DNA of 64,000 nucleotides, from assembly GCA_964535955.1 (NCBI GenBank), contig CAZHVK010000003.1, forward strand, positions 62,001 to 126,000, read 5' to 3'. Both the position numbers and the translations under genes were made by a program. The notes under the pieces were generated by a model. It saw nothing but the letters and a program-made list of their open reading frames with translations. It did not search any database and was not told where the DNA came from. Below, piece by piece: positions 1 to 18,805 of this stretch; the stretch's first letter is position 1; every line of letters starts with the position of its first letter. This stretch comes from an uncultured Methanosarcinales archaeon (GTDB lineage Archaea > Nanobdellota > Nanobdellia > Woesearchaeales > CAXGTL01).

Positions 1-161
1 TAGTCCTTATTAACAAATTCTAAGCTCATTCTAATTACCTTAAAACCTCAGATTAGGGCAATACACACCTTCTACCACACAAATGCAAACAGAACACTTA
101 TAAAGACTAAAATATTTCTTATTATTGTAGGAATTTGTTCTTGACAAAGAGACGAAAGCTA

Positions 162-3100
162 ATGCAACAAAAAAAACCTAATGAAAAACCTGGCAAAACT
201 AAAAAAACAATAGACCAAGATAGTCAACAGACCAAAAAAAAAGATCAAGAAGAAAAAAAAAAAGAAACAAAAGAAAAAATAATCATAAGAGTGATAGAAG
301 ATGAGATGAAAGAATCTTATCTAAGTTATGCAATGTCAGTTATAGTCAGCAGAGCACTACCAGATGTAAGAGATGGATTAAAACCAGTCCATAGAAGGAT
401 TCTTTTTGCAATGCATGAGATGGGTATGTACCCAAACAAACCATTTAAAAAATCAGCTAGAATTGTTGGTGAAGTTCTGGGAAAATTTCATCCACATGGA
501 GATATGTCTGTGTATGATGCTATGGTTAGAATGGCACAACCATGGTCATTAAGATATCCCCTTGTCCAAGGTCAAGGAAATTTTGGTTCTATTGATGGGG
601 ATAGTGCAGCTGCCCACAGGTATTGTATTACAGGAGATTCTTTAATATTAACTGAAAAAGGAATTATTCCTATAGAGGAGATCTCCAATGAAAAAGAAGG
701 TAAGATTAACATAAAAATTTTATCTTATGATGGGAAAAAGAACAAAGCTTCCAAATTCTTTAATTCTGGAAAACATAAAATAATCAAGATTTTAACAAAA
801 ACAGGATACTCTCTTGAAGGGTCTTATAATCATCCTATTTTAACATGGAAAGTTGGCCCAAATTTTAAGCCAATGATTTCATGGAAGTTATTAGAGGACC
901 TAAACAAAGATGATATTATTATAATAAATAGAAAAAATAACTTATTTTCAAATAGATCAACAAAACTTAAAAAGTATTTTCCAAAAAAAGGTTTCAAAAA
1001 TGAAATAGGATTACCATCTAAAATGAATAATGATTTAGCTTTTCTATTGGGAGCCTTGGTTAGTGAAGGATGTTTTCATAATAAACAAATCTTATTTAAT
1101 AATAAAGATAAAGAATTTTATAATAAGGTTAAATCAATTATTTTATCTCAGTTCAAAGGAATCCAATTATATGAAAGGAATATAAAAGGGAAATGTAAAG
1201 AATTAAGTATTTATGAACAAAAAGTAGTATTATTTTTAAAAAATATAGGATTAAAAAATAAGAAATCTCATGAAAAAGAGATTCCATTCTCAGTCTTATT
1301 ATCAAAAAAAGAACATGTAAAAAGATTTCTAATAAGTTTATTTGAGGGAGATGGAAGTGTTATTTTTATTAAGGATAAAAGACATAATGGGAGAAGTATT
1401 CAATTAACTTATGATTCAAAAAGTGAGAAATTAATCAAACAACTTAAAATAGTTTTATTAAACTTTGGAATTGTATCAAATTACCCAAGTATTGATAAAA
1501 GATGTAATTGCCTAAAATTATGCATTTCCTCGCATAAGAATATAAATCAATTCAATAAAGAAATAGGATTCTTTTCCAATAGAAAAAGAAAAACACTTAA
1601 ATTAATAGAAAAAATAAACCCAGCAAGATTAAGTAAAATTGATTTTATTCCTTTTCTAAATGATTATTTAAGATATAAATATAATTCAATGTTTATTGAA
1701 AAAAATAATTTTGATAGATATAATTCATTAAAGAAGAATTATGTAAAGCTTATCAAAATAATTAGTAAAGAAGATAAATATTTGATTGATTGGTTATTGA
1801 AGAATGAATTTTATTTTGATCAATCAATAGACATTAAGAAATTAAGAGATAAAAAGTATGTATATTCAATTAAAGTTAATAGTAAATGTCATTCCTTTAT
1901 TGCAAATGGGTTTGTTAACCATAACACAGAAGCACGCCTATCAAAAATATCTACAGAATTATTAACAGACATTGAAAAAAAAACAGTTGATTTTCAACCT
2001 AATTTTGATGCTTCACTAAAAGAACCAATTGTTTTGCCAAGTAGGATACCAAATTTACTTCTCAATGGTTCGTCTGGAATTGCAGTGGGCATGGCAACAA
2101 ATATTCCACCTCACAATTTAGTTGAGGTTTGTAATGGAATAATTTATGTAATTGACAACCCAGAATGTGAAAAAAAAGAAATAATGAATTTCATCAAAGG
2201 CCCTGATTTTCCAACAGGAGGAACAATCATAGGAAAACAAGGAATAATAAATGCATATAATACAGGCAGAGGAAAAATTACAATAAGAGGAAAAACAGTC
2301 ATAAAAGAAAAGGAAGGCAAAAAGGATAAAAAAAGAATAATAATAATAAATGAAATACCTTACCAACTAAATAAATCAAGTTTAATTGAAGAAATAGCAG
2401 ATTATGTAAGAAACAGGAAAATCACAGGAATAAGTGATATAAGGGATGAATCAGATAAACAAGGAATGAGAATTGTTATTGTATTGAAAAAAGATGCAAA
2501 TCAAGATGTTGTATTAAATCAATTATACAAAAAAACAAGATTGCAATCAACTTTTGGAATAAACATGCTTGCTTTAGTAAATAACGAACCTAAAACATTA
2601 AACATTAAACAAATAATAACTAGATTTATTGAACATAGAAAACAAGTTACAATTAGAAAAACAACTTATGATCTTGAAAAAGCAGAATTAAGAGCACACA
2701 TTCTGCAAGGTTTAATAATTGCATTAGATGATATTGATAATGTTGTTCAAAAAATAAAAGCCAGCAAAGATATAAAACAAGCAACAGAAGTATTAATCAA
2801 GCAGTATACATTATCAGAAACACAAGCAAAAGCTATTTTAGATATGAAACTACAAAAGTTAGCTTCACTAGAACAAGAAAAAATAAAAATAGAAAAAAAG
2901 GAACTATTAAAGCTCATAGAAAATTTAAAAAGTATATTAGCAAATGAAGCAAAAGTACTTCAAATCATAAAAGAAGAACTAAAGGAGATTATACAGAAGT
3001 ATGGTGATGAAAGAAGAACAGAAATATCTGAAGAAGAAAAAAGACTAATTGAAATAGAAGATATGATTAAAGAGGAAGACATGATTATTACTATTACACA

Positions 3101-4013
3101 TCAAGGTTATATTAAAAGATTACCAATCCAAACATATAAAAAACAGAAAAGAGGAGGAAAAGGAGTTATTGCAGCGTCTACAAAAGATGAAGATTTTGTA
3201 AGTGACTTGTTCATTGCCTCAACACATTCATATATCTTATTTTTCACAGATAAAGGACAAGTTCATTGGTTAAAAGTTTATGAAGTGCCAATAGGATCTA
3301 GACAATCAAGAGGAAAAGCAATAATAAATTTATTGAATGTAAAAGATGAAAAAATAACAGCAACTGTTCCTGTAAGAGAATTTAAGCAAGGAGATTATCT
3401 AATAATGGCAACAAAAAAAGGAACAATAAAAAAAGTAGATATTACTATGTTTCAAAAACCAAGAAAAGGAGGAATTCGAGCAATGACTTTAGAACAAGAT
3501 GATATTCTTATAAATGTAGTAAAGACAGATGGAAATAAACAAGTGTTATTGGCAACAAATAATGGAATGGCTATAAGATTTAAAGAAACAGATTTAAGAT
3601 CTATTGGAAGAACTGGAAAAGGTGTTAGAGGAATTAATCTAAAAAATGATGATAAAGTAATTGATATTATTGTTGTAGACAATAATAAAGATATTTTAAC
3701 AGTAACAGAAAATGGTTATGGAAAAAGAACAAAGATAAATGAATACAGAATAATAAACAGAGGAGGGGTAGGAGTAATAAACATAAAAACAGATGAAAGA
3801 AATGGGGAAGTAATAGGTGTATCAGCAGTGCAAGAAGAGGATGAAGTCATGCTAATAAGTAAGAATGGCATAATGATAAGAACACCCACTAAAGGCATAT
3901 CATGCATAGGTAGAAACACAAAAGGTGTTAGAGTCATGAGGCTAGAACAAGATGATAACTTAGTTGCAGTTGCAAAGATTATAAATGAAGAAGAGGATGA
4001 AAAGAATAAATAA
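162..4013 (+). CDS. gyrA: DNA gyrase subunit A, interrupted by an intein
   Basis: [33 protein letters not shown], catalytic [20 protein letters not shown], GyrA-box QKRGGKG and C-terminal pinwheel repeats. ATG at 162 preferred over TTG at 135. Confidence 0.97.
624..1925 (+). mobile_element. Intein (434 aa) with LAGLIDADG homing endonuclease, inserted right after the catalytic Tyr of GyrA
   Basis: Junctions RY/CITGDSL and [11 protein letters not shown] (Cys1, His-Asn terminus, Thr+1). Block B GSYNHP. LAGLIDADG-like motifs LLGALVSEG and LISLFEGDG. Confidence 0.95.
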
Positions 4014-6013: not shown

Positions 6014-9000
6014 TTAATATCTTCTCTTCTTCTTACCAACTGCAAATATTGCCAGAAACATAAACAAAACTATTCCTGCCAAGATTACAAATCCACAGAT
6101 CATCAAAGTAGTTTCCCATGAATCATCAAGTTTGAAATAATCTATATCTTCTGCTCCTTGTTGCTGATAAATTTCTGCTGTTAACCCTTCAAAAAGATCT
6201 TCATCTTCAAAACCAGATTCTACATCTTTTTTAAATTCTATTTCTTTCTCAGTTATGCATTCTTTAACATCAAGATTCACTATTTTCTTGTCATCCTCTT
6301 CATCGTCATCATAATAAACAATTACTGATATAGGATATTCTTTTGCTTTAGCATCTTCTGGAATAAATAGATTAAAACTTCTTGAAAATTCTGAGTCATC
6401 ATCAAACACATCTGTCTCAAGATCAGAGATACTTGTATATCTTTCATTAATATTCAGCTCTGAATTAGTAATCTCTAGCACGACATCCTTTTCCTCTTCT
6501 GCACCATAATTTTTTATTTTAAGATCCAAATGAGTTGACCTATCACAAGATAATTCTTCGCTTGCTAAATCTGACCTTACTATTCTTAAATCATGGTCTT
6601 CCTTCTCAATAAATAAATCAAGATTCCATGTATCTTCATGATTAACTCCCAATCCATCTCTTCCATCAACAGTAATAATTACATCATATCCTGCAGATTT
6701 ATCATTCACATCAAGAGGGATATCAAAAGTCAACACTCTGTCTTCTGATTCGTCAGGATCTAATCTAAATGAATCAGTATCTTCATCAAGATCTTTATCT
6801 CCATCTTTTAAGATTTTTCTTATTTCTACTTGTATTTCTATACTCTTGATTTCATAGTCATCATTATCATCATCATCATACTTATTTTCTACATCAACAG
6901 TAAATTTAAGTACTGAACCTGGCTTTATATCATCAATATGTCCATTATTATCAATACTATAATCATCTTCACTATCATCAATCTCTACATCAACTATTTT
7001 TAACTTAGATGGAGGATTTTGATATACTAAAATCATTTTCTGGTCTATGTCTTTGTTTGTGATATCTATACTTCCAATCTTACTTTTTCTTGATTGTTCC
7101 CTTTCTGAAACAAATGTTCTTACAATGAGTTTTTGTGATAATCCAGGACCAAGAGTTAATTTCGTAGATGTTACATAATCCCCACTTTCAAGTTTCATTG
7201 AAATATTTTCATCATATTCAGGAATTAATGCAATTTCTATATCATCTAAAACTTCATACCCTGTATTTTCTATTACAATTTCTTGTGATTGTTCTGTTCC
7301 TCTTTCATCATCAAAAATAATCTCAGTATGGTCAATAGAGAGACTATAAGCATTAGCCTTATCTTTAGCAGTGAATGATGTAAAATGATCAACACTAAAT
7401 ACTAAAATTCCTGCAGACTTGTCATGAGAAATAATTTTACAAAAATCACAAACACTTGTTAAATCATTTTGGTCTGTTGTAAAACCATTATTATAATAAA
7501 TCACTGGTTTTTCAAGAGATGATACTTTCATAGTAATTGTAGCTTTCTTATTCTTGAACGCAGACAATACATTTGAATTTACTGCTACAATATTAGTTTG
7601 AATCCTAACATTATTATCAATATCTGCAACATCACTTAAATCAATAACTTCACTACCAAAATCAATCTTTCCTCTACTTCCTGCATCTATTTTTACATCA
7701 ACTGCTTTATCAACACCCTTGCTTATATCATGATTCAATGAAAAATCATAAGACACAGGTAAATCTGTCACAGTTACTGTCCATGAATAATTAACAACAT
7801 TAGCACTTTCAATCATTACAATAACTTCATAAGTACCTGTAGTACTTGGATCAAAAGTATATGAATAAATATTTCCAATTGGTGATGCATATCTTTTAAC
7901 AAATTTATCATTAACAATCCATGATACTACAAATGAATCATCAGGATCTGAAACAGATATTGAAAAATCAATTTTTTCATCCTCTCTGATTATTAGACTT
8001 GTTTGTTCAGGAAGTTTATTACTTATGTCAATACCATCATCAACTGAAGAGATAGTAATATCAATTTTCTGACTAACTAATAAACCATCACTATCAATCA
8101 AACTCAATGTTACTTCATCAGTACCATATTTGTCTTTAACAGGAACTATTGTCATTAAATCTGTTGAAGGGTTTATACTAATAGACATTAAATTAGTATC
8201 AACACCACTAACACTCCAAACCAGACTTGATCCAGAATCTTCTACATCATTACCATAATTAGTTAAATCAAAAGTATAAGTTGTATCTTCATTCAAATTC
8301 AGGTCAGGCACTGTTTGTGTAATACTAGGTGCTAAATTTATATGGTTCGTCTGTAAATAAAAGTCTTTAGATATTTCCATATCAAAATCATACACAGCTT
8401 TTATCTCAATTGGATAACTCCCACTCAAAACTTCTTCAGGAATTACAAAAGATTTTGTATAAGTATGATTTTGTTCACTATTAATACTATCAACAATACT
8501 TGAATTATCAATACCTAAATTAGCATTCTTAACACTTAATGTAATATCCCTTTCATCTTTGGTACCTAAATTACTTAAAACAAATCTTAATTCTGTATTA
8601 CCACCACTATTAACAGGCTGAGGACTTAAACTAATATCTTGGATAATCAAATGATGTCTTTGCCTTCCAACATCAATAAACATATCTCTTTCTTCAATAA
8701 AATATTCATTGCCCTCATAATCTTCAAATCTTAATGATAAATTTAATTCATAAGTACCTTCATCAGCACTAGTAGGAATTGGGAATATTAATGAATCTTG
8801 TTTTGTTGTTAATGGATCTAAATCAAATTTAAATTCTTTAACAACTTCATCCTCTTCTGTCAAACCAATTATATCAAATGATGCAGCTTCTAATTCAATT
8901 TCTCTGCCACTAAACAAATTCTCAAACTCAAATTCAAAAGTTAATTCATTACTTAAATTAACACTTTTTGTTTGACCCTGCTTGAATTCCTCACCATTCA

Positions 9001-12128: not shown

Positions 12129-14318
12129 TTATTTAAAAAATTTAAAAATAAGTAATCCAAAAATTGCTAACAATAAAACTGCAACAATTACTAGTAAAAC
12201 AACATAGCCAGTAGAATCTGTAAAACTTTGGTCGCCAATAATTACTTGGCCTCCTTGTTCTCCTTCACCTTCTGCTTCGCCTTCAGATTCACCTTCTCCT
12301 TCAGCTTCGCCTTCACCTTCACCTTCTGAAGAAAACCCACTAGATGATCCTTCTGCTCCTTTAGCCTTAACTATTAAGTCTATTTCTTTGTATTCACTTT
12401 CATCATCTTTCTCATAATAGGATTTGATTTTACAAGTGTATGTTCCTGGTTTTTGATCATCATCTACTGTAAATTGAAAGATGTCGTCAAACTTGCTGCT
12501 GTCTCTTTTAACCCTTGTTCTTAATTTAGGTACATCATCATGTGAATAAATCTTAGATACACCTAATTCATTACATTCAATTCCTACTGCAGCATCTTCT
12601 TCTGCATCTCTTCCAAGATTTTGAACTTCAAAACTTAATTTTGCTGTTTCGCCTTGTTCAACTTCAGCATCTAAGAATCTTGCTTCTGTAATTTCAATCA
12701 AATGATCAGGTTTTTCAATATCTAAAAAAGCTTCCCATGTGATTTTATGCTCTGCATCATCATCATCTTCACCTTTTACAATAATCTCTACAGTATAACC
12801 ATCATCTTTTTCATCAACTTCCCTAGGAATACTAAACTTAATATCAACAGAATCATCTTCACCAGGTTCTAAAATACTTATTGAATCTGATTCATCTATA
12901 TCGTCATTATCGTCAATATCTTTGATAGTTATATCAACATCAATTCTTTTTATGTCAATATTTTTTTCATAATTATCACTACTTGAAAAATCACTAACAA
13001 GATCTACTGTAAATACTAATTCTGTTCCTGGTAAAACACCACCAAAACTAGAACCATCACCAACAGGATCATCTTCCCCTGTATTGTCTGGTGAATCATA
13101 ATTAACATTTATTTCATCAATAATTAGCCTGCTTTTTGTTTCTAATAACAAACTATTGATTCTTTTTTCAGGTGCTTCTTTTGATTTAACAATTACATCT
13201 CCAATATCACGTTCACCTGAATGTTGATCTTTAGGTACGTGAATTTTCATATTAAAACTTACACTTTCTCCAGGTATTAATGAATAATCTTCTAATTTGC
13301 TTGCAAATGTAGAATCATCATCACCATCTTGTTTAAACAAAACATTATATTGGCTACCTGCATTTGATTCAATACTAATTTCTGTTATTGTTTCATCCCC
13401 TGTATTAGTTACTGAAAAAGTGCTAGTAAGATTTTCTCTTCTTTTTTGACCAGAACTACCAAATTTTAATTCATTGATAAGATCTAATTGTTTTCTAGGT
13501 TGGATAACCTTTGCTTCAAGACCAACTTCTTTTGTTTGAGAAGGACTACCAAATGTAATTTTAGCCTTTTCATTAGCATTGTTTTTATAAACAGCTGCTG
13601 CTTGATCAGCAGGAACAGTCATTTTTGCTTTAACAGTCACACTAGATTTATAAGGTACGTCAAAAAGAGTTAAATCATCAACAGTAAATGACATTGTCTC
13701 AATATTTAATGCATTATTCCCTGTAGTATATAACCTCTTTGATGTTGGTGCTTGAACAGAAGCAGTAATATCTTTATTACCTACATTAGATACTGTAAAT
13801 ACATCAAAAGATTCTCTTCCAATAACTAAACCATCTAGAACAATATTACTTACAGATATTTGTTCATTTGTTTTAACATTAAATGCAAAATTATCACTAT
13901 CTGTAAGAGGGCTTGTACCAGAACTTGTTGCTGTAATTTGTCCTGAATAAGCTCCAGCATATGCATCAGTAGGAACAGTTATTTTAAATTTAACATCCTT
14001 TGATTCACTTGCTGCTAATGTTGCAATTTTAGTTACTTCTGTATTATCAATATAATACTTAATATTGGTTACTTTATTTGCAGTAGTCTTAACACTAGAT
14101 GCAAAACCATCTCCAATTGAAAAAGAAATATCAGTTAATTCAGTTGCTTCTCCATTTGTTACTGTAAAATATCCTTCACCAAAAGAACCACCATCAATTT
14201 CATTTGATATTGCAGTTTTTTCAGTTAATTGTAAATCAGCACTAACTGAAAATGCTAATGCAAAAAAAATCACAAATAAAAACAAAGTTTTTATCATTAT
14301 ATTTCTATTTAATTTCAT
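12129..14318 (-). CDS. Surface/S-layer-like protein with Ig-like domains, EGEGE linker and C-terminal TM anchor
   Basis: Signal peptide, repeated VxNxG Ig-like motifs, EGEGEGEAEGEGESEGEAEGEGE stalk, TM helix. C-terminal half resembles that of 6014..11821. Confidence 0.8.
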   Translation of the reverse strand: MKLNRNIMIKTLFLFVIFFALAFSVSADLQLTEKTAISNEIDGGSFGEGYFTVTNGEATELTDISFSIGDGFASSVKTTANKVTNIKYYIDNTEVTKIATLAASESKDVKFKITVPTDAYAGAYSGQITATSSGTSPLTDSDNFAFNVKTNEQISVSNIVLDGLVIGRESFDVFTVSNVGNKDITASVQAPTSKRLYTTGNNALNIETMSFTVDDLTLFDVPYKSSVTVKAKMTVPADQAAAVYKNNANEKAKITFGSPSQTKEVGLEAKVIQPRKQLDLINELKFGSSGQKRRENLTSTFSVTNTGDETITEISIESNAGSQYNVLFKQDGDDDSTFASKLEDYSLIPGESVSFNMKIHVPKDQHSGERDIGDVIVKSKEAPEKRINSLLLETKSRLIIDEINVNYDSPDNTGEDDPVGDGSSFGGVLPGTELVFTVDLVSDFSSSDNYEKNIDIKRIDVDITIKDIDDNDDIDESDSISILEPGEDDSVDIKFSIPREVDEKDDGYTVEIIVKGEDDDDAEHKITWEAFLDIEKPDHLIEITEARFLDAEVEQGETAKLSFEVQNLGRDAEEDAAVGIECNELGVSKIYSHDDVPKLRTRVKRDSSKFDDIFQFTVDDDQKPGTYTCKIKSYYEKDDESEYKEIDLIVKAKGAEGSSSGFSSEGEGEGEAEGEGESEGEAEGEGEQGGQVIIGDQSFTDSTGYVVLLVIVAVLLLAIFGLLIFKFFK

Positions 14319-14511: not shown

Positions 14512-15399
14512 ATGAAAGATTTAATATTTTCAAGCACAATAGGTAATTTTATTCTAAATAAAAAATCAAACAAAATAAAGAAATATAAACAAAAACTGAA
14601 AAATAAAGAGATAAAAGAGGGCAATATTGAAGAAAAGAGGCAAATACTGCCCTATTTGAAAAATAAAGACTATTTTAAAGACTTTATTGAAAAAAACAAA
14701 GAATTTACTAAAAATGAAATAATTAAAAGCATAAATCAAGAAAATCTAATGATACAAACAGTAAACAATATACAAGAAATAGAAAAATGCATAAACATGC
14801 TTTCTAAGCGTCTAAGAGAATGGTATTCATTATATTTACCTGAATTAGACAAATCAACAGACAAGCATGAAATCTTTACAAATCTTGTTCTTAGAAAAAA
14901 CAAAACACAATTACTAAACCAATTAAAAGTAAAAAAAGACAAATGTCTTGGCAAAGATCTTGATAAAAAAGATATAAATGAAATCAAATTCTTAGCAGGT
15001 GAAATATCAAATTTACATAAACTAAAGAAAAAACACGAAACATATCTTGAAGATATCACAAAACAGTGTATGCCAAACAGTCAAAAAGTTGCAGGAACAA
15101 TGATTGCAGCAAAGTTATTAGCACATGCAGGTACATTATTAAGATTAATAGAATTTCCATCATCAACAATACAATTATTAGGAGCAGAAAAAGCCTTGTT
15201 TAGACATCTAAAAACAGGTGCACGTTGTCCAAAACATGGAATAATTATTGGGCATGAACTAGTTGCAAAAGCAAAAAATAAAGGCAAAATGGCAAGAATC
15301 TTGGCAGATAAAATATTAATAGCTGCAAAAGTTGATTATTTCAAAGGAGAACCTATTGGAAAAACATTAAGAGATAAATTGGACAAGTTGAAGGTATAA
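14512..15399 (+). CDS. nop5: Nop5/Nop56-58 box C/D sRNP subunit (short N-terminus)
   Basis: RLREWYSLYLPE, PSSTIQLLGAEKALFRHL, PKHGII, GKMARILA..AAKVDYF. Confidence 0.95.
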   Translation: MKDLIFSSTIGNFILNKKSNKIKKYKQKLKNKEIKEGNIEEKRQILPYLKNKDYFKDFIEKNKEFTKNEIIKSINQENLMIQTVNNIQEIEKCINMLSKRLREWYSLYLPELDKSTDKHEIFTNLVLRKNKTQLLNQLKVKKDKCLGKDLDKKDINEIKFLAGEISNLHKLKKKHETYLEDITKQCMPNSQKVAGTMIAAKLLAHAGTLLRLIEFPSSTIQLLGAEKALFRHLKTGARCPKHGIIIGHELVAKAKNKGKMARILADKILIAAKVDYFKGEPIGKTLRDKLDKLKV

Positions 15400-15478
15400 A
15401 ATTAGTACACTGACTTAGTCTCTATCGTCCTCGGGTAGGCGGTTGGGGGCTGGAAGGTGGGAATATAAAGAATACAAA

Positions 15479-16138
15479 ATGAAACAAACAAAACATGCAA
15501 AAATATTCGAAGACAGAGGAAGAATATACACAATCAACCTAGTCAAGGGTAAAAAAGTTTATGGTGAAAGATTATTCATAGAAAGAGGAATTGAATATAG
15601 AGAGTGGGATATAAGAAGAAGTAAGTTAGGCGCTGCAATTAAAAAAAATATAAAACAATTAGGTTTTAAGCCAGGCAATGTAGTATTATATTTAGGATCA
15701 GCTTCTGGAACTACAGTGAGTCATGTATCAGATATTATTGGGCCAAAAGGTCTCATCTTCGCACTTGAATTCGCTCCAAGAGTTATGAGAGATCTTATGT
15801 TTATGTGTAATGACAGAAAAAACATTGCACCTATTCTAGCAGATGCACATCAACCACAAAAATATGAAGACAAAATGTGTATGGTTGATTTTGTATTTCA
15901 AGATATTGCTCAAAAAGACCAAGCAGAAATCTTCCTAAGGAATTGTGAACTATTTCTAAAAGATGATGGATTAGCAATAATTGCAATCAAATCAAGAAGT
16001 ATAGATATTACTAAAAAACCAACATTAATTTACAAAATAGTTGAGAACAAACTTAAAGAAAAAATGGATGTCATAGACTTCAAAACATTAGATCCATTTG
16101 AAAGAGATCATTGTGTATTTTTGTGTAGAAAGAGATAA
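15479..16138 (+). CDS. flpA: Fibrillarin-like rRNA/tRNA 2'-O-methyltransferase
   Basis: VYGE, YREW..RSKLGAAI, VLYLGSASGTTVSHVSD, FQDIAQKDQ, LDPFERDH. Follows nop5. Confidence 0.96.
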   Translation: MKQTKHAKIFEDRGRIYTINLVKGKKVYGERLFIERGIEYREWDIRRSKLGAAIKKNIKQLGFKPGNVVLYLGSASGTTVSHVSDIIGPKGLIFALEFAPRVMRDLMFMCNDRKNIAPILADAHQPQKYEDKMCMVDFVFQDIAQKDQAEIFLRNCELFLKDDGLAIIAIKSRSIDITKKPTLIYKIVENKLKEKMDVIDFKTLDPFERDHCVFLCRKR

Positions 16139-16169
16139 AAATAAACGTAAATATTGCCACTTTAAAATC

Positions 16170-16183
16170 GAAACATTTAAATA
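16170..16183 (+). promoter_or_regulatory. BRE/TATA promoter (GAAACA-TTTAAATA) for a leaderless transcript starting near 16207
   Basis: TATA-like box ends about 23 nt before the ATG at 16207, the usual archaeal TATA-to-start spacing. Confidence 0.65.
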
Positions 16184-16206
16184 GTTTTTATACACTACTT
16201 ATTACT

Positions 16207-16245
16207 ATGACAAAAACAAATTATTTAGGATGTTGTTGTTGTTAG
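16207..16245 (+). CDS. Putative polycysteine leader peptide MTKTNYLGCCCC
   Basis: atg aca aaa aca aat tat tta gga tgt tgt tgt tgt tag, placed between a TATA box and tRNA-Cys/cysK/cysS. Confidence 0.75.
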   Translation: MTKTNYLGCCCC

Positions 16246-16304
16246 AATTCTTTCATTGTTTTAGTTTTTAATCTATAATCATTCAAGATTATCATGATTA
16301 TTCT

Positions 16305-16376
16305 GGAAGTGTGGCCAAGCGGCTAAGGCAAGAGGCTGCAACCCTCTGATCCTGGGTTCAAGTCCCAGCACTTCCT
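16305..16376 (+). tRNA. tRNA-Cys (GCA)
   Basis: Acceptor GGAAGTG/CACTTCC, D-arm GCC/GGC, anticodon stem AGAGG/CCTCT with loop CT-GCA-AC, T-arm CTGGG-TTCAAGT-CCCAG, discriminator U. No encoded CCA. Confidence 0.97.
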
Positions 16377-16477
16377 TCTCAAAAACTAAGATAATAATGA
16401 AAGAAACAATAAAACAAAGAATAAGATGAAAAAAATAAAAAATAAATTAGAATAAATAATATTGGAGGCGAATAAAA

Positions 16478-17371
16478 ATGAAAAATAACATATTATGGAC
16501 AATAGGAGACACACCCCTTGTAAAAATAAATAAATTAAACCCTAATAAAAATGTAAAGATCTATGCAAAATTAGAAGGGTTTAACCCAACTGGAAGTATA
16601 AAAGATAGAATTGCACTAAAGATGATCCAGCAAGCAGAAGTAGAAGGTATGCTAACAAAAGACAAAACAATAATAGAAGCAACATCAGGCAACACAGGAA
16701 TTGCTTTGGCAATGATTGGAACAGTTAGAGGATACAAAGTTGAAATTGTCATGAGTGAAGCTGTTTCAGTTGAAAGAAGGAAAATAATAAAAGCATTTGG
16801 AGCAAAGATTACATTAACAGACCCAACTCAAGGAACAGATGGTGCAATTAGAAAAGTAAAAGAATTGACTGAAAAATATCCAGATAAATATTTTACACCA
16901 GATCAATTTACAAACAAGTACAATAAGATTGCACATTATAAAACAACTGCAGAAGAAATTTGGAGAGATACTGGTGGAGAAATAGATTATTTTGTTTCTT
17001 CATTAGGAACATCTGGTACAATCATGGGTGTTGGTCTTGGATTAAAAGAAAACAATCCAAATATAAAGATTGTTGAAGCACATCCTGTAAAAGGGCATTA
17101 TATCCAAGGCTTGAAAAATATGGAAGAAGCAATTGTTCCTGCAATCTATGATCCATCAAAGATTGATGAATCAATAATGATAGAGACAGAAGATGCATTT
17201 GAGATAACTCGGCAGATTGTAAAACAAGAAGGTATATTTGTAGGTATGAGTAGTGGAGCAGCACTCTTAGCAGCAATAGAAATAGCAAAAAAAATTGATT
17301 CAGGCACAATAGTTGTTATATTTCCAGACAGAGGGGAAAAGTATTTAAGTACAACATTATTTAATGAATAA
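16478..17371 (+). CDS. cysK: Cysteine synthase (O-acetylserine sulfhydrylase, CysK/CysM family)
   Basis: IGDTPLV, NPTGSIKDR (PLP Lys), EATSGNTG, GTSGT, GMSSGA, PDRGEKYLST. GGAGG SD upstream. Confidence 0.93.
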   Translation: MKNNILWTIGDTPLVKINKLNPNKNVKIYAKLEGFNPTGSIKDRIALKMIQQAEVEGMLTKDKTIIEATSGNTGIALAMIGTVRGYKVEIVMSEAVSVERRKIIKAFGAKITLTDPTQGTDGAIRKVKELTEKYPDKYFTPDQFTNKYNKIAHYKTTAEEIWRDTGGEIDYFVSSLGTSGTIMGVGLGLKENNPNIKIVEAHPVKGHYIQGLKNMEEAIVPAIYDPSKIDESIMIETEDAFEITRQIVKQEGIFVGMSSGAALLAAIEIAKKIDSGTIVVIFPDRGEKYLSTTLFNE

Positions 17372-17389
17372 AGTACAAAGGTGAAGAAT

Positions 17390-18805
17390 ATGAAAAAACA
17401 CGAATTGTATTTATATAATACACTCACAAGAAAAAAAGAATTATTTAAGCCAATAGTTTCAGGAGAAGTGGGATTCTATAGTTGTGGGCCTACTGTTTAC
17501 TGGAATCAGCATATTGGGAATCTAAGGACTTATGTTTTTAATGATATTCTTAAAAGAGTATTATTATATGATGGATATAAAGTAAAACACATTATGAATG
17601 TCACAGATGTTGGCCACCTTACCAGTGATGCTGATACTGGCGAAGACAAGATGGAAAAAGCAGCTGCAAAAGAAGGAAAAAAAGCACAAGACATTGCAGA
17701 TTATTATTGGAAAATATTTAGACAAGACTTTAGAAAACTAAATATTATTGAACCAGATGTATGGTGTAAAGCAACTGAATACATACAAGAACAAATTAAT
17801 ATGTTAAAAGTTCTTGAAAAAAAAGGCTTCACATATAAAACATCTGATGGTATTTATTTTGATTCATTAAAATTAAATGATTATGGTAAATTAGCAAAAC
17901 TAAAGATAGAAGGATTAAAAGCAGGAATAAGAACAGATGTAAGAGAAAAAAAAAACCCAACTGATTTTGCTTTGTGGAAATTTTCAGAAAAACCAGGAAT
18001 AAGACAACAAGAATGGAACTCACCTTGGGGAATTGGGTTTCCAGGTTGGCATCTCGAATGTTCTGCAATGGCAGCAAAACATTTAGGTAAACAATTTGAT
18101 ATTCATACAGGTGGTGAAGACCATATCACTGTTCACCATACAAATGAGATTGCACAAGCAGAAGCAGCTTTTGGCAAAAAACCATGGGTAAAGTATTGGT
18201 TACATGGAGCTTTTTTAACATCAAAAGGTGAAAAAATCAGCAAAAGCAAAGGAGGTTTATTTACAATAGATAACTTAGAAGAAAAAAGATTCAAACCTTT
18301 AAGTTACAGATACTTGTGTCTTAATACACATTATAGAAAACAATTAAGCTTTTCATTAGAAGTTTTAAAAAATGCAGAAAAATCATATGATAGATTAAGA
18401 ACCATAATCAGAGATTTAAAACAAGAAAAAGATAAATCAAAAACAGAACAAAATACAAATAAACAAGAAATAAATGAATTATATTTAACAAAATTCGAAG
18501 ATGCAATCAATGACGATCTTAACATGCCACAAGCATTAGCAGTTTTATGGGACTTTGTTAGAGACAAAGATGCAAAAGGTAAATTAAAGACAATTGAAGA
18601 AATGGAAAAAGTGTTTGCTTTGGATTTGTTAGTTGAAGAAGAGAAAGTTAAAGTTTCTGATAAAATCACAAAACTTATTGATGAGCGTGAACAAGCAAGA
18701 AAAGACAAAGATTTTGCAAAAGCAGATAAAATAAGGGATAAACTAAAAGAAAAAGGAATAATTCTAGAAGATACTAAAGATGGTGTTAGGTGGAAAAAAG
18801 TTTAA
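17390..18805 (+). CDS. cysS: Cysteine--tRNA ligase
   Basis: CGPTVY, HIGN, DFALWK, PGWHLECSAM, DIHTGG..HHTNE, KISKS, AD.IRD.L. AAGGTGA SD before ATG 17390. Confidence 0.97.
   Translation: MKKHELYLYNTLTRKKELFKPIVSGEVGFYSCGPTVYWNQHIGNLRTYVFNDILKRVLLYDGYKVKHIMNVTDVGHLTSDADTGEDKMEKAAAKEGKKAQDIADYYWKIFRQDFRKLNIIEPDVWCKATEYIQEQINMLKVLEKKGFTYKTSDGIYFDSLKLNDYGKLAKLKIEGLKAGIRTDVREKKNPTDFALWKFSEKPGIRQQEWNSPWGIGFPGWHLECSAMAAKHLGKQFDIHTGGEDHITVHHTNEIAQAEAAFGKKPWVKYWLHGAFLTSKGEKISKSKGGLFTIDNLEEKRFKPLSYRYLCLNTHYRKQLSFSLEVLKNAEKSYDRLRTIIRDLKQEKDKSKTEQNTNKQEINELYLTKFEDAINDDLNMPQALAVLWDFVRDKDAKGKLKTIEEMEKVFALDLLVEEEKVKVSDKITKLIDEREQARKDKDFAKADKIRDKLKEKGIILEDTKDGVRWKKV

Follow-up and report, generated by a model that had tools for sequence, protein, structure and literature searches.

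A 64-kb stretch of AT-rich archaeal DNA (contig CAZHVK010000003.1, positions 62,001 to 126,000; hereafter the window) carries a tRNA-Cys gene whose flanks are complementary to each other and can fold into a long stem around the tRNA. The stem starts 3 nt downstream of the stop codon of a short open reading frame (mini-ORF) that ends in four cysteine codons, and genes for a cysteine synthase (cysK) and for the cysteinyl-tRNA synthetase (CysRS; cysS) follow the tRNA on the same strand. We consider the bracketing helix to be probably functional. The best single explanation, which we advance tentatively, is that the stem is a selectively maintained leader-trailer element of a tRNA-Cys-cysK-cysS transcript, coupled to a mini-ORF that would sense cysteine. 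Complementarity of the arms beyond chance, conservation of both arms, the geometry of the promoter and the lack of a terminator or promoter between tRNA and cysK support this explanation.

The order on the + strand is mini-ORF, 5' arm, hairpin, tRNA-Cys, 3' arm, spacer, cysK and cysS. The features are as follows.

16168-16183, + strand: archaeal promoter of the B recognition element (BRE)/TATA type, TCGAAACATTTAAATA; weight matrix score 12.0 bits at 16176
16207-16245, + strand: mini-ORF MTKTNYLGCCCC followed by a stop, 12 codons, predicted to be leaderless; ATG 24 nt past the TATA motif
16231-16242, + strand: four UGU Cys codons, forming the outer extension of the 5' arm; paired with 16406-16416 in the minimum-free-energy (MFE) fold
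16248-16269, + strand: core of the 5' arm, composed of TTCTTTCATT (16248-16257), GTT (16258-16260) and TTAGTTTTT (16261-16269) and including the U-tract 16259-16269
16269-16300, + strand: inner hairpin between 5' arm and tRNA, inverted repeat ATAATCAT/ATGATTAT; present as a variant in the MFE fold
16305-16376, + strand: tRNA-Cys (GCA), CCA not encoded; called by ARAGORN and by Rfam RF00005 (61.4 bits)
16381-16416, + strand: 3' arm, with its core at 16381-16405, composed of AAAAACTAA (16381-16389), GATAAT (16390-16395) and AATGAAAGAA (16396-16405), and an extension at 16405-16416
16417-16477, + strand: A-rich spacer ahead of cysK with the Shine-Dalgarno (SD) sequence GGAGG (16465-16469), read from the sequence; unpaired in the MFE fold
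16478-17371, + strand: cysteine synthase of the CysK/CysM family (NCBIfam TIGR01136 cysKM, 387.3 bits, cut-off 344.15)
17381-18805, + strand: cysteine-tRNA ligase, i.e. CysRS (NCBIfam TIGR00435 cysS, 466.9 bits, cut-off 340); an ATG at 17390 is also a possible start

A long stem encloses tRNA-Cys and reaches the cysteine codons

The core of the stem consists of 10 base pairs between 16248-16257 and 16396-16405 and 9 base pairs between 16261-16269 and 16381-16389, all perfect, with a 3 x 6 internal loop between them. This is the helix that a preliminary description of the DNA had reported, and its statements about the sequence proved correct throughout. In the MFE fold, computed with RNAfold for 16200-16480, the loop is converted into four extra pairs (two of them G-U) and a 3-nt bulge at 16394-16396, and the stem continues across the stop and the Cys codons of the mini-ORF (16231-16243 with 16405-16416), beyond which a weak outermost helix is found. 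The fold thus contains both the suggested overlap of the stem with Cys codons and leader stop and the suggested pairing of ACAATA (16406-16411) with the last Cys codons, the latter with one G-U. The inner hairpin, likewise described before, was found as an inverted repeat, and the start segment ACAAAAACAA (16210-16219) does have the two partners ascribed to it, namely the Cys tract (-8.2 kcal/mol) and the U-rich tract (-6.4 kcal/mol). Stem, inner hairpin and acceptor stem converge on a three-way junction, with linkers of 4 and 5 nt at the tRNA ends in the MFE fold.

The 5' arm is present in a single copy in the window and no flanking direct repeat was seen by eye, and a mobile element with terminal inverted repeats was rejected on these grounds. 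No known RNA family other than tRNA was recovered here by Rfam at the gathering threshold, and nothing else appeared at E≤10 in 16100-16520.

Both arms are conserved in a related genome

Relatives were gathered with CysRS as query against genome contigs, which yielded 80 loci. One of them, L001, shares the full layout; its CysRS is 78-80% and its CysK about 92% identical to the proteins of the window. Between 16205 and 16430 there are 14 differences in 226 positions, and between 16221 and 16404 there are 4 in 184, one of them in the tRNA. The leader (16221-16304) is identical at 82 of 84 positions and the trailer (16377-16404) at 27 of 28, while identity of the 5' arm (16248-16269) is 100%. 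At four-fold degenerate sites of four flanking genes, by comparison, 202 of 307 positions (66%) are identical, and intergenic DNA outside the conserved block barely aligns. Against the four-fold sites, a binomial calculation puts p at about 1e-12 (leader) and about 1e-4 (trailer). Since arms, hairpin and Cys run are nearly unchanged at a distance that leaves 66% identity at four-fold sites, we conclude that they are under purifying selection. Conservation decays past 16405.

In the mini-ORF of L001 (MINTIYLGCCCC followed by a stop), codons 2-5 vary freely (TKTN to INTI); start codon, reading frame, all four Cys codons and stop codon are conserved. Both substitutions in the inner hairpin stretch (16274 and 16293) lie at unpaired positions, and the fold of L001 has the same architecture as that of the window. 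Six substitutions affect paired positions. Three of them retain the pair, all opposite a G (G-U to G-C at 16258/16392 and 16238/16410, G-C to G-U at 16241/16407); the other three break a pair, namely 16243/16405, which is terminal, and two pairs of the weak outermost helix.

A second locus, L060 (CysRS 65% identical), matches the layout in part. Its tRNA-Cys lies directly before cysS and is preceded by a mini-ORF, MKSALFGCW and a stop, at the same distance from the promoter. The segment TTCTTTCAT after the stop codon is kept in L060 too, and the 18-nt pattern TAGARTTCTTTCATWGTT, which covers the end of the mini-ORF and the next bases, occurs in 2 of the 80 loci, L001 and L060. L063 has its tRNA-Cys on the other strand, with flank pairing not above shuffles. 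No convincing poly-Cys mini-ORF was found within 400 nt upstream of cysS in the other loci; the best-looking candidate, in L014, sits within a coding region and was rejected.

Some further observations concern these loci. The 3' arm of the window opens a tiny ORF (MKETIKQRIR and a stop, 16397-16429); L001 has a longer version of it, with the ATG conserved. Lacking both SD and promoter, the ORF was rejected as a gene; most simply, it is probably the complement of the 5' arm. Before cysK, L001 has about 60 extra bases relative to the window (L001 7020-7090), where the SD region GGAGGCGAA is duplicated and which include a hairpin with perfect pairing (ATGCAAAAC..GTTTTGCAT) as well as a small ORF. 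In L063 (10495-10585, minus strand), a 6-bp leader-trailer pairing, AAGGAT/ATCCTT, adjoins the acceptor stem, and a hairpin and a T-run lie upstream.

Complementarity of the arms compared with chance

We counted composite repeats, defined as a perfect stem of at least 10 bp and a perfect stem of at least 9 bp with a loop of up to 6 nt on each side and a span of up to 250 nt. The whole window contains one, which is the repeat described here, and one in total was found across 20 windows shuffled in blocks of 100 nt. Comparisons of energy with shuffles were moderate overall (p about 0.001-0.05). The wide-flank duplex reached -27.6, compared with -19.7 +/- 3.4 in dinucleotide shuffles, and was equalled or surpassed by 20 of 1000; with the 3' flank alone shuffled, 65 of 1000 matched the observed duplex energy. 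For 60-nt flanks 9 of 200 shuffles were equally good, and for narrow flanks, which were selected post hoc, 1 of 1000. Of 1314 arbitrary segment pairs from the window 153 matched the duplex energy; coding DNA of higher GC content accounts for many of these.

When 43 tRNA genes of the window and the related loci are compared for flank pairing, L001 and the window have the two most negative z scores (-3.15 and -1.95, respectively). For folds of the whole region, the z scores were -3.25 (window) and -4.13 (L001), and in each case none of 200 shuffles was as good. Stability no better than in shuffled AT-rich controls had been named beforehand as the result that would speak against the helix; the stability found is better than in such controls, although only moderately so.

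A single promoter ahead of a leaderless mini-ORF

The promoter was scored with a weight matrix trained on 26 sites of non-Cys tRNA genes in the related loci (training scores 6.9-19.7). A score of at least 12 occurs at only 10 positions on the + strand of the window, and apart from the site at 16176 all sites in 16140-16320 score at most 0.1 bits each. The distal motif recurs at the same spacing in both relatives, with 11.5 bits in L001 and 15.7 bits in L060, and in all three sequences an ATG lies 23-24 nt past the promoter motif. The 24-nt spacing of the window equals that of leaderless genes elsewhere in it (39716, 28602 and 53365) and that of tRNA starts in the relatives (mostly 23-27 nt); many protein genes of the relatives carry a TTTAWAW motif about 24 nt before the ATG, which is the geometry of leaderless mRNAs. 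A proximal promoter candidate, TCTATAAT (16272-16279), 25 nt before the tRNA, was rejected, as sites nearby score at most 0.1 bits and L001 has a T-to-C change within it.

In the related loci, the TTTAWAW motif ends 18-30 nt (mostly 23-27 nt) ahead of the tRNA in 25 of 43 tRNA genes, and this fixed distance indicates that these tRNAs are transcribed with nearly no 5' leader. Given that the only recognisable promoter is the one at 16176, the RNA should start at the ATG of the mini-ORF and provide tRNA-Cys with a leader of 98 nt, which is exceptional. Judged by promoter geometry, transcription is predicted to start no more than a base or two from the mini-ORF AUG. Translation of the mini-ORF is a prediction, too. 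Its TAG was taken as a stop, and read-through was dropped, because TAG ends 3 of 40 long ORFs of the window. Runs of at least four TGY codons are rare: 7 were counted in 1.0 Mb on both strands (2 Mb of strand), and two of these are the leaders of the window and L001.

Downstream of tRNA-Cys, the longest T run within 100 nt is 2, compared with at least four T in 37 of 45 tRNAs of the set. Between the tRNA and cysK there is no run of three or more T and no recognisable promoter (by matrix to 16320 and by eye further on). The lack of a T-run and of a promoter-like site, together with an SD-led cysK, points to one transcript from the mini-ORF through cysS.

Effect of ribosome position on the stem

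The preliminary description had proposed that mutually exclusive structures, chosen by the position of a ribosome, mask or expose a U-rich terminator-like tract or change tRNA excision. This interpretation is supported in part. In folds with the ribosome footprint blocked at the first Cys codon, the fourth Cys codon and the stop, the stem was shortened stepwise (-58.1, -50.0, -42.1 and -38.8 kcal/mol). As proposed, the outer and middle parts of the stem were lost; no new helix took their place, however, and the 3' arm was left single-stranded. The stem thus only peels, and the folds contained no alternative helix that would make two structures mutually exclusive. The pairing of the start segment ACAAAAACAA with the U-tract, which had been put forward as such an alternative, is not conserved (-6.4 kcal/mol in the window versus -2.8 kcal/mol in L001). 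Until transcription reaches the 3' arm, the start segment is available as a partner of the Cys tract (-8.2 kcal/mol; L001 -5.6 kcal/mol), at about the energy of the later pairing of the Cys tract with the 3' extension (-8.4 kcal/mol; L001 -7.1 kcal/mol).

A role of the U-tract as a terminator that is masked or exposed did not hold up either. The long-range helix cannot mask the tract during transcription because the polymerase reaches the 3' arm only after more than 110 further nt. A search of 15900-16700 gave no terminator of the hairpin-plus-U type, and no stable hairpin precedes the U-tract 16259-16269 in leader-only folds. Runs of at least five T are not avoided on the coding sense strands of the window (135 seen versus about 104 expected from composition), and a single T5 is probably a weak terminator in this host. 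In L060 there is no T-run between mini-ORF and tRNA. As an observation on its own, several T6-T8 runs are found where transcription units end, one example being downstream of the gene at 12129-14318. The lack of a terminator, the unconserved alternative and the late 3' arm together leave the classical attenuator version weak. The part that survives, as a model, is that a stalled ribosome would prevent formation of the leader-trailer stem.

Genomic setting

The window is AT-rich throughout (GC 0.23-0.34) and contains archaeal markers, i.e. genes for the signal recognition particle (SRP) RNA, aNOP56, fibrillarin, TBP, MCM, Cdc6 and PolD. Among the 80 loci, the nearest CysRS relatives are in metagenome-assembled genomes (MAGs) of Woesearchaeota, Pacearchaeota and Nanoarchaeota type. 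The host is an AT-rich DPANN archaeon. The mini-ORF, the stem and tRNA-Cys(GCA), which is the sole tRNA across the 64 kb, are housed in a 339-nt gap between the genes for fibrillarin and cysteine synthase. The two genes upstream of this gap are:

14512-15399, + strand: aNOP56
15443-16138, + strand: fibrillarin

Several additional observations were made in the window and the related loci. The GyrA gene (window 135-4013, + strand) is split by an intein with a LAGLIDADG homing-endonuclease domain. Several MAGs with CysRS 60-78% identical are labelled Patescibacteria, Aminicenantes, Saccharibacteria or Portnoybacteria, and L001 and L044 are labelled Methanosarcinales; these bacterial or Methanosarcinales labels seem to be errors of binning or labelling.

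In 29 of the 80 related loci, cysS is preceded by a same-strand tRNA-Phe(GAA) gene, mostly at about 0.9-1.0 kb, and the tRNA-Cys of the window, about 1.0 kb upstream of cysS, occupies the corresponding position. The tRNA-Phe usually has a T-run of its own, and the next gene a separate promoter of the leaderless type. In L071 (about 6905-6998), L074 (about 6835-6928), L041 (about 6190-6323) and L075 (upstream of the minus-strand tRNA 6404-6475), the tRNA-Phe gene is preceded by a copy of its own first ~15 nt and an insert of 65-80 nt. The inserts share a motif like GTTCGCTACAAC (in L075 partly), and the unit is present twice in L041, where the gene has an intron-like insert and ARAGORN calls a tRNA-Thr. 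Either a small mobile insertion or a precursor of unusual arrangement could account for this unit.

Discussion

Sensing of amino acids by ribosomes that stall on leader peptides is a textbook mechanism of bacteria. For the element described here we infer that stalling of a ribosome on the Cys codons and a resulting action of the stem, in a given direction, would operate as follows. Transcription would begin at or near the AUG of the 12-codon leaderless ORF that ends in four UGU. If Cys-tRNA(Cys) is plentiful, the ribosome would finish and leave, and a stem of about 32 bp (20 in the core and 12 over the Cys codons) would close on the pre-tRNA. Closed stem and inner hairpin would form a crowded three-way junction at the pre-tRNA, which may slow removal of the 5' and 3' extensions of the tRNA as well as release or use of the cysK-cysS message (low state). 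When Cys-tRNA(Cys) runs short, a ribosome halted at the four UGU codons would cover roughly 16222-16257 and leave only the weak A-U inner segment, so that the stem would open (high state). The sensor would then measure the joint product of the three genes that it controls, i.e. tRNA, cysteine synthase and synthetase. That the closed stem hinders tRNA processing is a guess within this model, and the direction of regulation could be opposite.

The layout has partial counterparts in several known systems. T-box leaders of Firmicutes bind tRNA directly, without ribosome or leader peptide; no T-box match was obtained in the Rfam searches (gathering threshold; E≤10 in 16100-16520). In archaeal rRNA operons, leader and trailer pair as a bulge-helix-bulge processing stem that encloses the stable RNA. 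A long leader-trailer helix encloses a stable RNA here as well; unlike in the rRNA stems, a bulge-helix-bulge is absent, and hairpin and linkers separate the helix from the tRNA ends. Nanoarchaeum equitans is known for leaderless tRNA transcription, and most tRNA genes of the related loci, with a TATA about 24 nt away, should likewise be transcribed from the mature 5' end or a position adjoining it, in contrast to the tRNA-Cys of the window with its 98-nt leader that would be translated. By promoter spacing, the nearly leaderless tRNA genes of the relatives L003-L077 resemble those of N. equitans, in which, according to PMC10100707, RNase P is not found.

The closest parallels come from bacterial cysteine attenuators. 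Mycobacterial attenuators with a polycysteine leaderless small ORF (sORF) have been described as the 'Cys ribulon' (Canestrari et al., bioRxiv 10.1101/834739), and in the one analysed in detail, Ms5788A, the Cys tract and the SD region make up a repressive duplex, which a stalled ribosome prevents and thereby frees the SD (bioRxiv 10.1101/834739). As in mycobacteria, a leaderless poly-Cys sORF is the first ORF of a cysteine-related operon and its Cys tract forms one strand of a duplex. In detail, the two or more consecutive Cys codons typical of that system are present in the window and L001 (four UGU), and L060 has one; leaderlessness is predicted from the 12.0-bit promoter and its 24-nt spacing; and the sORF stands as first cistron before cysteine genes, with cysK and cysS on the same strand and co-transcription likely. 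The Cys tract does not pair with a downstream SD; its partner is 16405-16416. Our element comes from an archaeon; its Cys tract pairs with a segment beyond an embedded tRNA-Cys gene, about 50 nt upstream of the SD, which it leaves unmasked; and the controlled unit includes the cognate tRNA as well as CysRS. Moreover, the mycobacterial case is experimental, ours predicted from sequence. Since the SD is unpaired in all folds and no alternative structure was found, SD masking of the mycobacterial kind is not applicable here and the output step is a guess. A second bacterial group comprises the uORFC-8-2 motif of Rhodobacterales, which the relevant passages of PMC8632094 present as a short ORF with Cys codons before cysS, with an intrinsic terminator of stem and U run, and the Cys leader peptides before cys/cbs operons in Actinobacteria that are noted in PMC1262725. 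As far as these passages go, they share with our element tandem Cys codons near the end of a short ORF, inside a stem and before cysS or cysteine-biosynthesis genes. Unlike uORFC-8-2 as described there, our element has no terminator hairpin, its stem is long-range across a tRNA, and its host belongs to the Archaea, in which transcription termination is not known to need a hairpin. Among the components of a classical attenuator, a leader peptide with tandem codons is thus present (MTKTNYLGCCCC and stop), and a terminator hairpin and an exclusive antiterminator are lacking.

A number of findings weigh against a cysteine-sensing leader-trailer element. The main weakness is an evidence base of two closely related genomes and one partial, more distant case: the full layout is common to only 1 of the 80 related loci. 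The covariation analysis that had been set beforehand could compare L001 alone, a single near-identical homologue that is too close for covariation, and 0 of 74 pairs in this two-sequence alignment were double-changed (compensatory). In L060 the flanks pair over 5 + 4 + 5 bp, no better than shuffles (z = -0.06 for the flanks, 0.04 for the whole region), the mini-ORF has a single Cys codon, and cysS has a promoter-like TATA sequence of its own; the tRNA-Cys of L063 is without a mini-ORF. For the window itself, the energy tests were modest (9/200, 20/1000 and 65/1000). They are weakened by composition, with a U-rich 5' flank, an A-rich 3' flank and much of the pairing between sequence of these two kinds. 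The constraint folds gave no alternative structure, and the SD of cysK (16465-16469) stayed unpaired in every fold, the Cys tract pairing with 16405-16416 instead. Finally, no RNase P RNA (Rfam) and no RNase P or splicing-endonuclease (EndA) domains (Pfam, 35 ORFs) were found within the 64 kb of the window, which says nothing about the rest of the genome.

Other explanations were considered. The stem may be a constitutive, translation-independent element of processing or stability, which organises excision of the tRNA from a polycistronic precursor or which, after cleavage, leaves the leader fragment paired with the newly formed 5' end of the cysK-cysS mRNA as a protection; the run of Cys codons would then matter as RNA sequence alone. 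We regard this as rather unlikely, although the second half of the mini-ORF is conserved at synonymous positions whereas codons 2-5 are free to vary, which fits a constraint at the RNA level, the helix encloses the tRNA exactly, and a 98-nt leader, exceptional among nearly leaderless tRNAs (25/43), may need special handling. Such an element leaves unexplained the position of a leaderless ATG in three genomes and an ending in Cys codons before tRNA-Cys, cysK and cysS, given the rarity of (TGY)≥4 runs, and bulge-helix-bulge geometry is missing. A further alternative, a bulge-helix-bulge substrate of the archaeal splicing endonuclease from which the pre-tRNA is excised and perhaps circularised, was rejected as highly improbable. 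The long leader-trailer helix around a stable RNA in an archaeon and one 3-nt bulge (16394-16396) would suit it, but the required geometry is absent: no second 3-nt bulge lies opposite at 4 bp, the other irregularity being a 5-nt bulge 8 bp away, and the helix ends 36 nt (5') and 5 nt (3') from the tRNA, so that cleavage inside it could not give mature ends.

It is also conceivable, but in our view unlikely, that the complementarity is incidental, the two arms being conserved separately (one as mini-ORF end and U-rich tract, the other as a trailer or 5'-untranslated-region element) and matching as U-rich versus A-rich sequence. Wide-flank shuffles reach the observed energy in 2-6% of cases, as do 153 of 1314 genomic segment pairs, covariation is lacking, and TTCTTTCAT is kept in L060, where pairing with its partner is not significant, which suggests a sequence-specific role of the 5' arm beyond pairing. 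On the other hand, the composite of 10 + 9 bp occurs once in 64 kb, around the only tRNA, versus 0.05 per shuffled window; the 3' arm is conserved at 27 of 28 positions with no other candidate explanation (no promoter score, no Rfam match); conservation fades as pairing fades; and the substitutions opposite G retain pairing in 3 of 3 cases. A classical transcription attenuator, in which ribosome position would decide between alternative hairpins and hence whether the U-tract 16259-16269 is exposed or masked as a premature terminator, has points in its favour. The T4 + T5 tract lies 14-24 nt past the stop and is 100% conserved in L001, the start segment pairs with either Cys tract or U-tract, and T4-T7 within 20 nt after the tRNA in 21 of 45 genes of the relatives makes oligo-T a likely terminator signal. 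We nevertheless hold it to be quite improbable: terminator-like hairpins number 0, the pairing of start segment and U-tract weakens from -6.4 to -2.8 kcal/mol in L001, L060 is without a T-run between mini-ORF and tRNA, T≥5 is as common in genes as composition predicts (135 versus about 104), which makes T5 a weak signal, and the long-range helix is excluded from such a switch because its 3' arm is transcribed later.

A leader-trailer stem coupled to a cysteine-sensing mini-ORF would add an archaeal member to this class of sensors. We met neither an archaeal leader-peptide attenuator nor a cognate tRNA inside a leader in the open-access literature searched. That the element is the first ribosome-mediated leader-peptide attenuator in Archaea, with a poly-Cys mini-ORF that acts via a tRNA-enclosing stem on tRNA maturation and not via termination or SD masking, is a claim we put forward as doubtful. 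If it is true, leaderless mini-ORF sensors arose independently in an archaeon and can work through the architecture of a tRNA precursor. One transcript would then hold all components of Cys-tRNA(Cys), i.e. tRNA, cysteine synthase and synthetase, with an output set by its own product, and a reduced DPANN genome would have retained a compact homeostat for Cys-tRNA supply. The element itself spans a defined 230 nt. If this reading fails, the tRNA precursor of unusual length, in a lineage of near-leaderless tRNAs, still has a leader-trailer stem that is strongly conserved, and even then it would be a pointer to tRNA 5'-end processing in such organisms.

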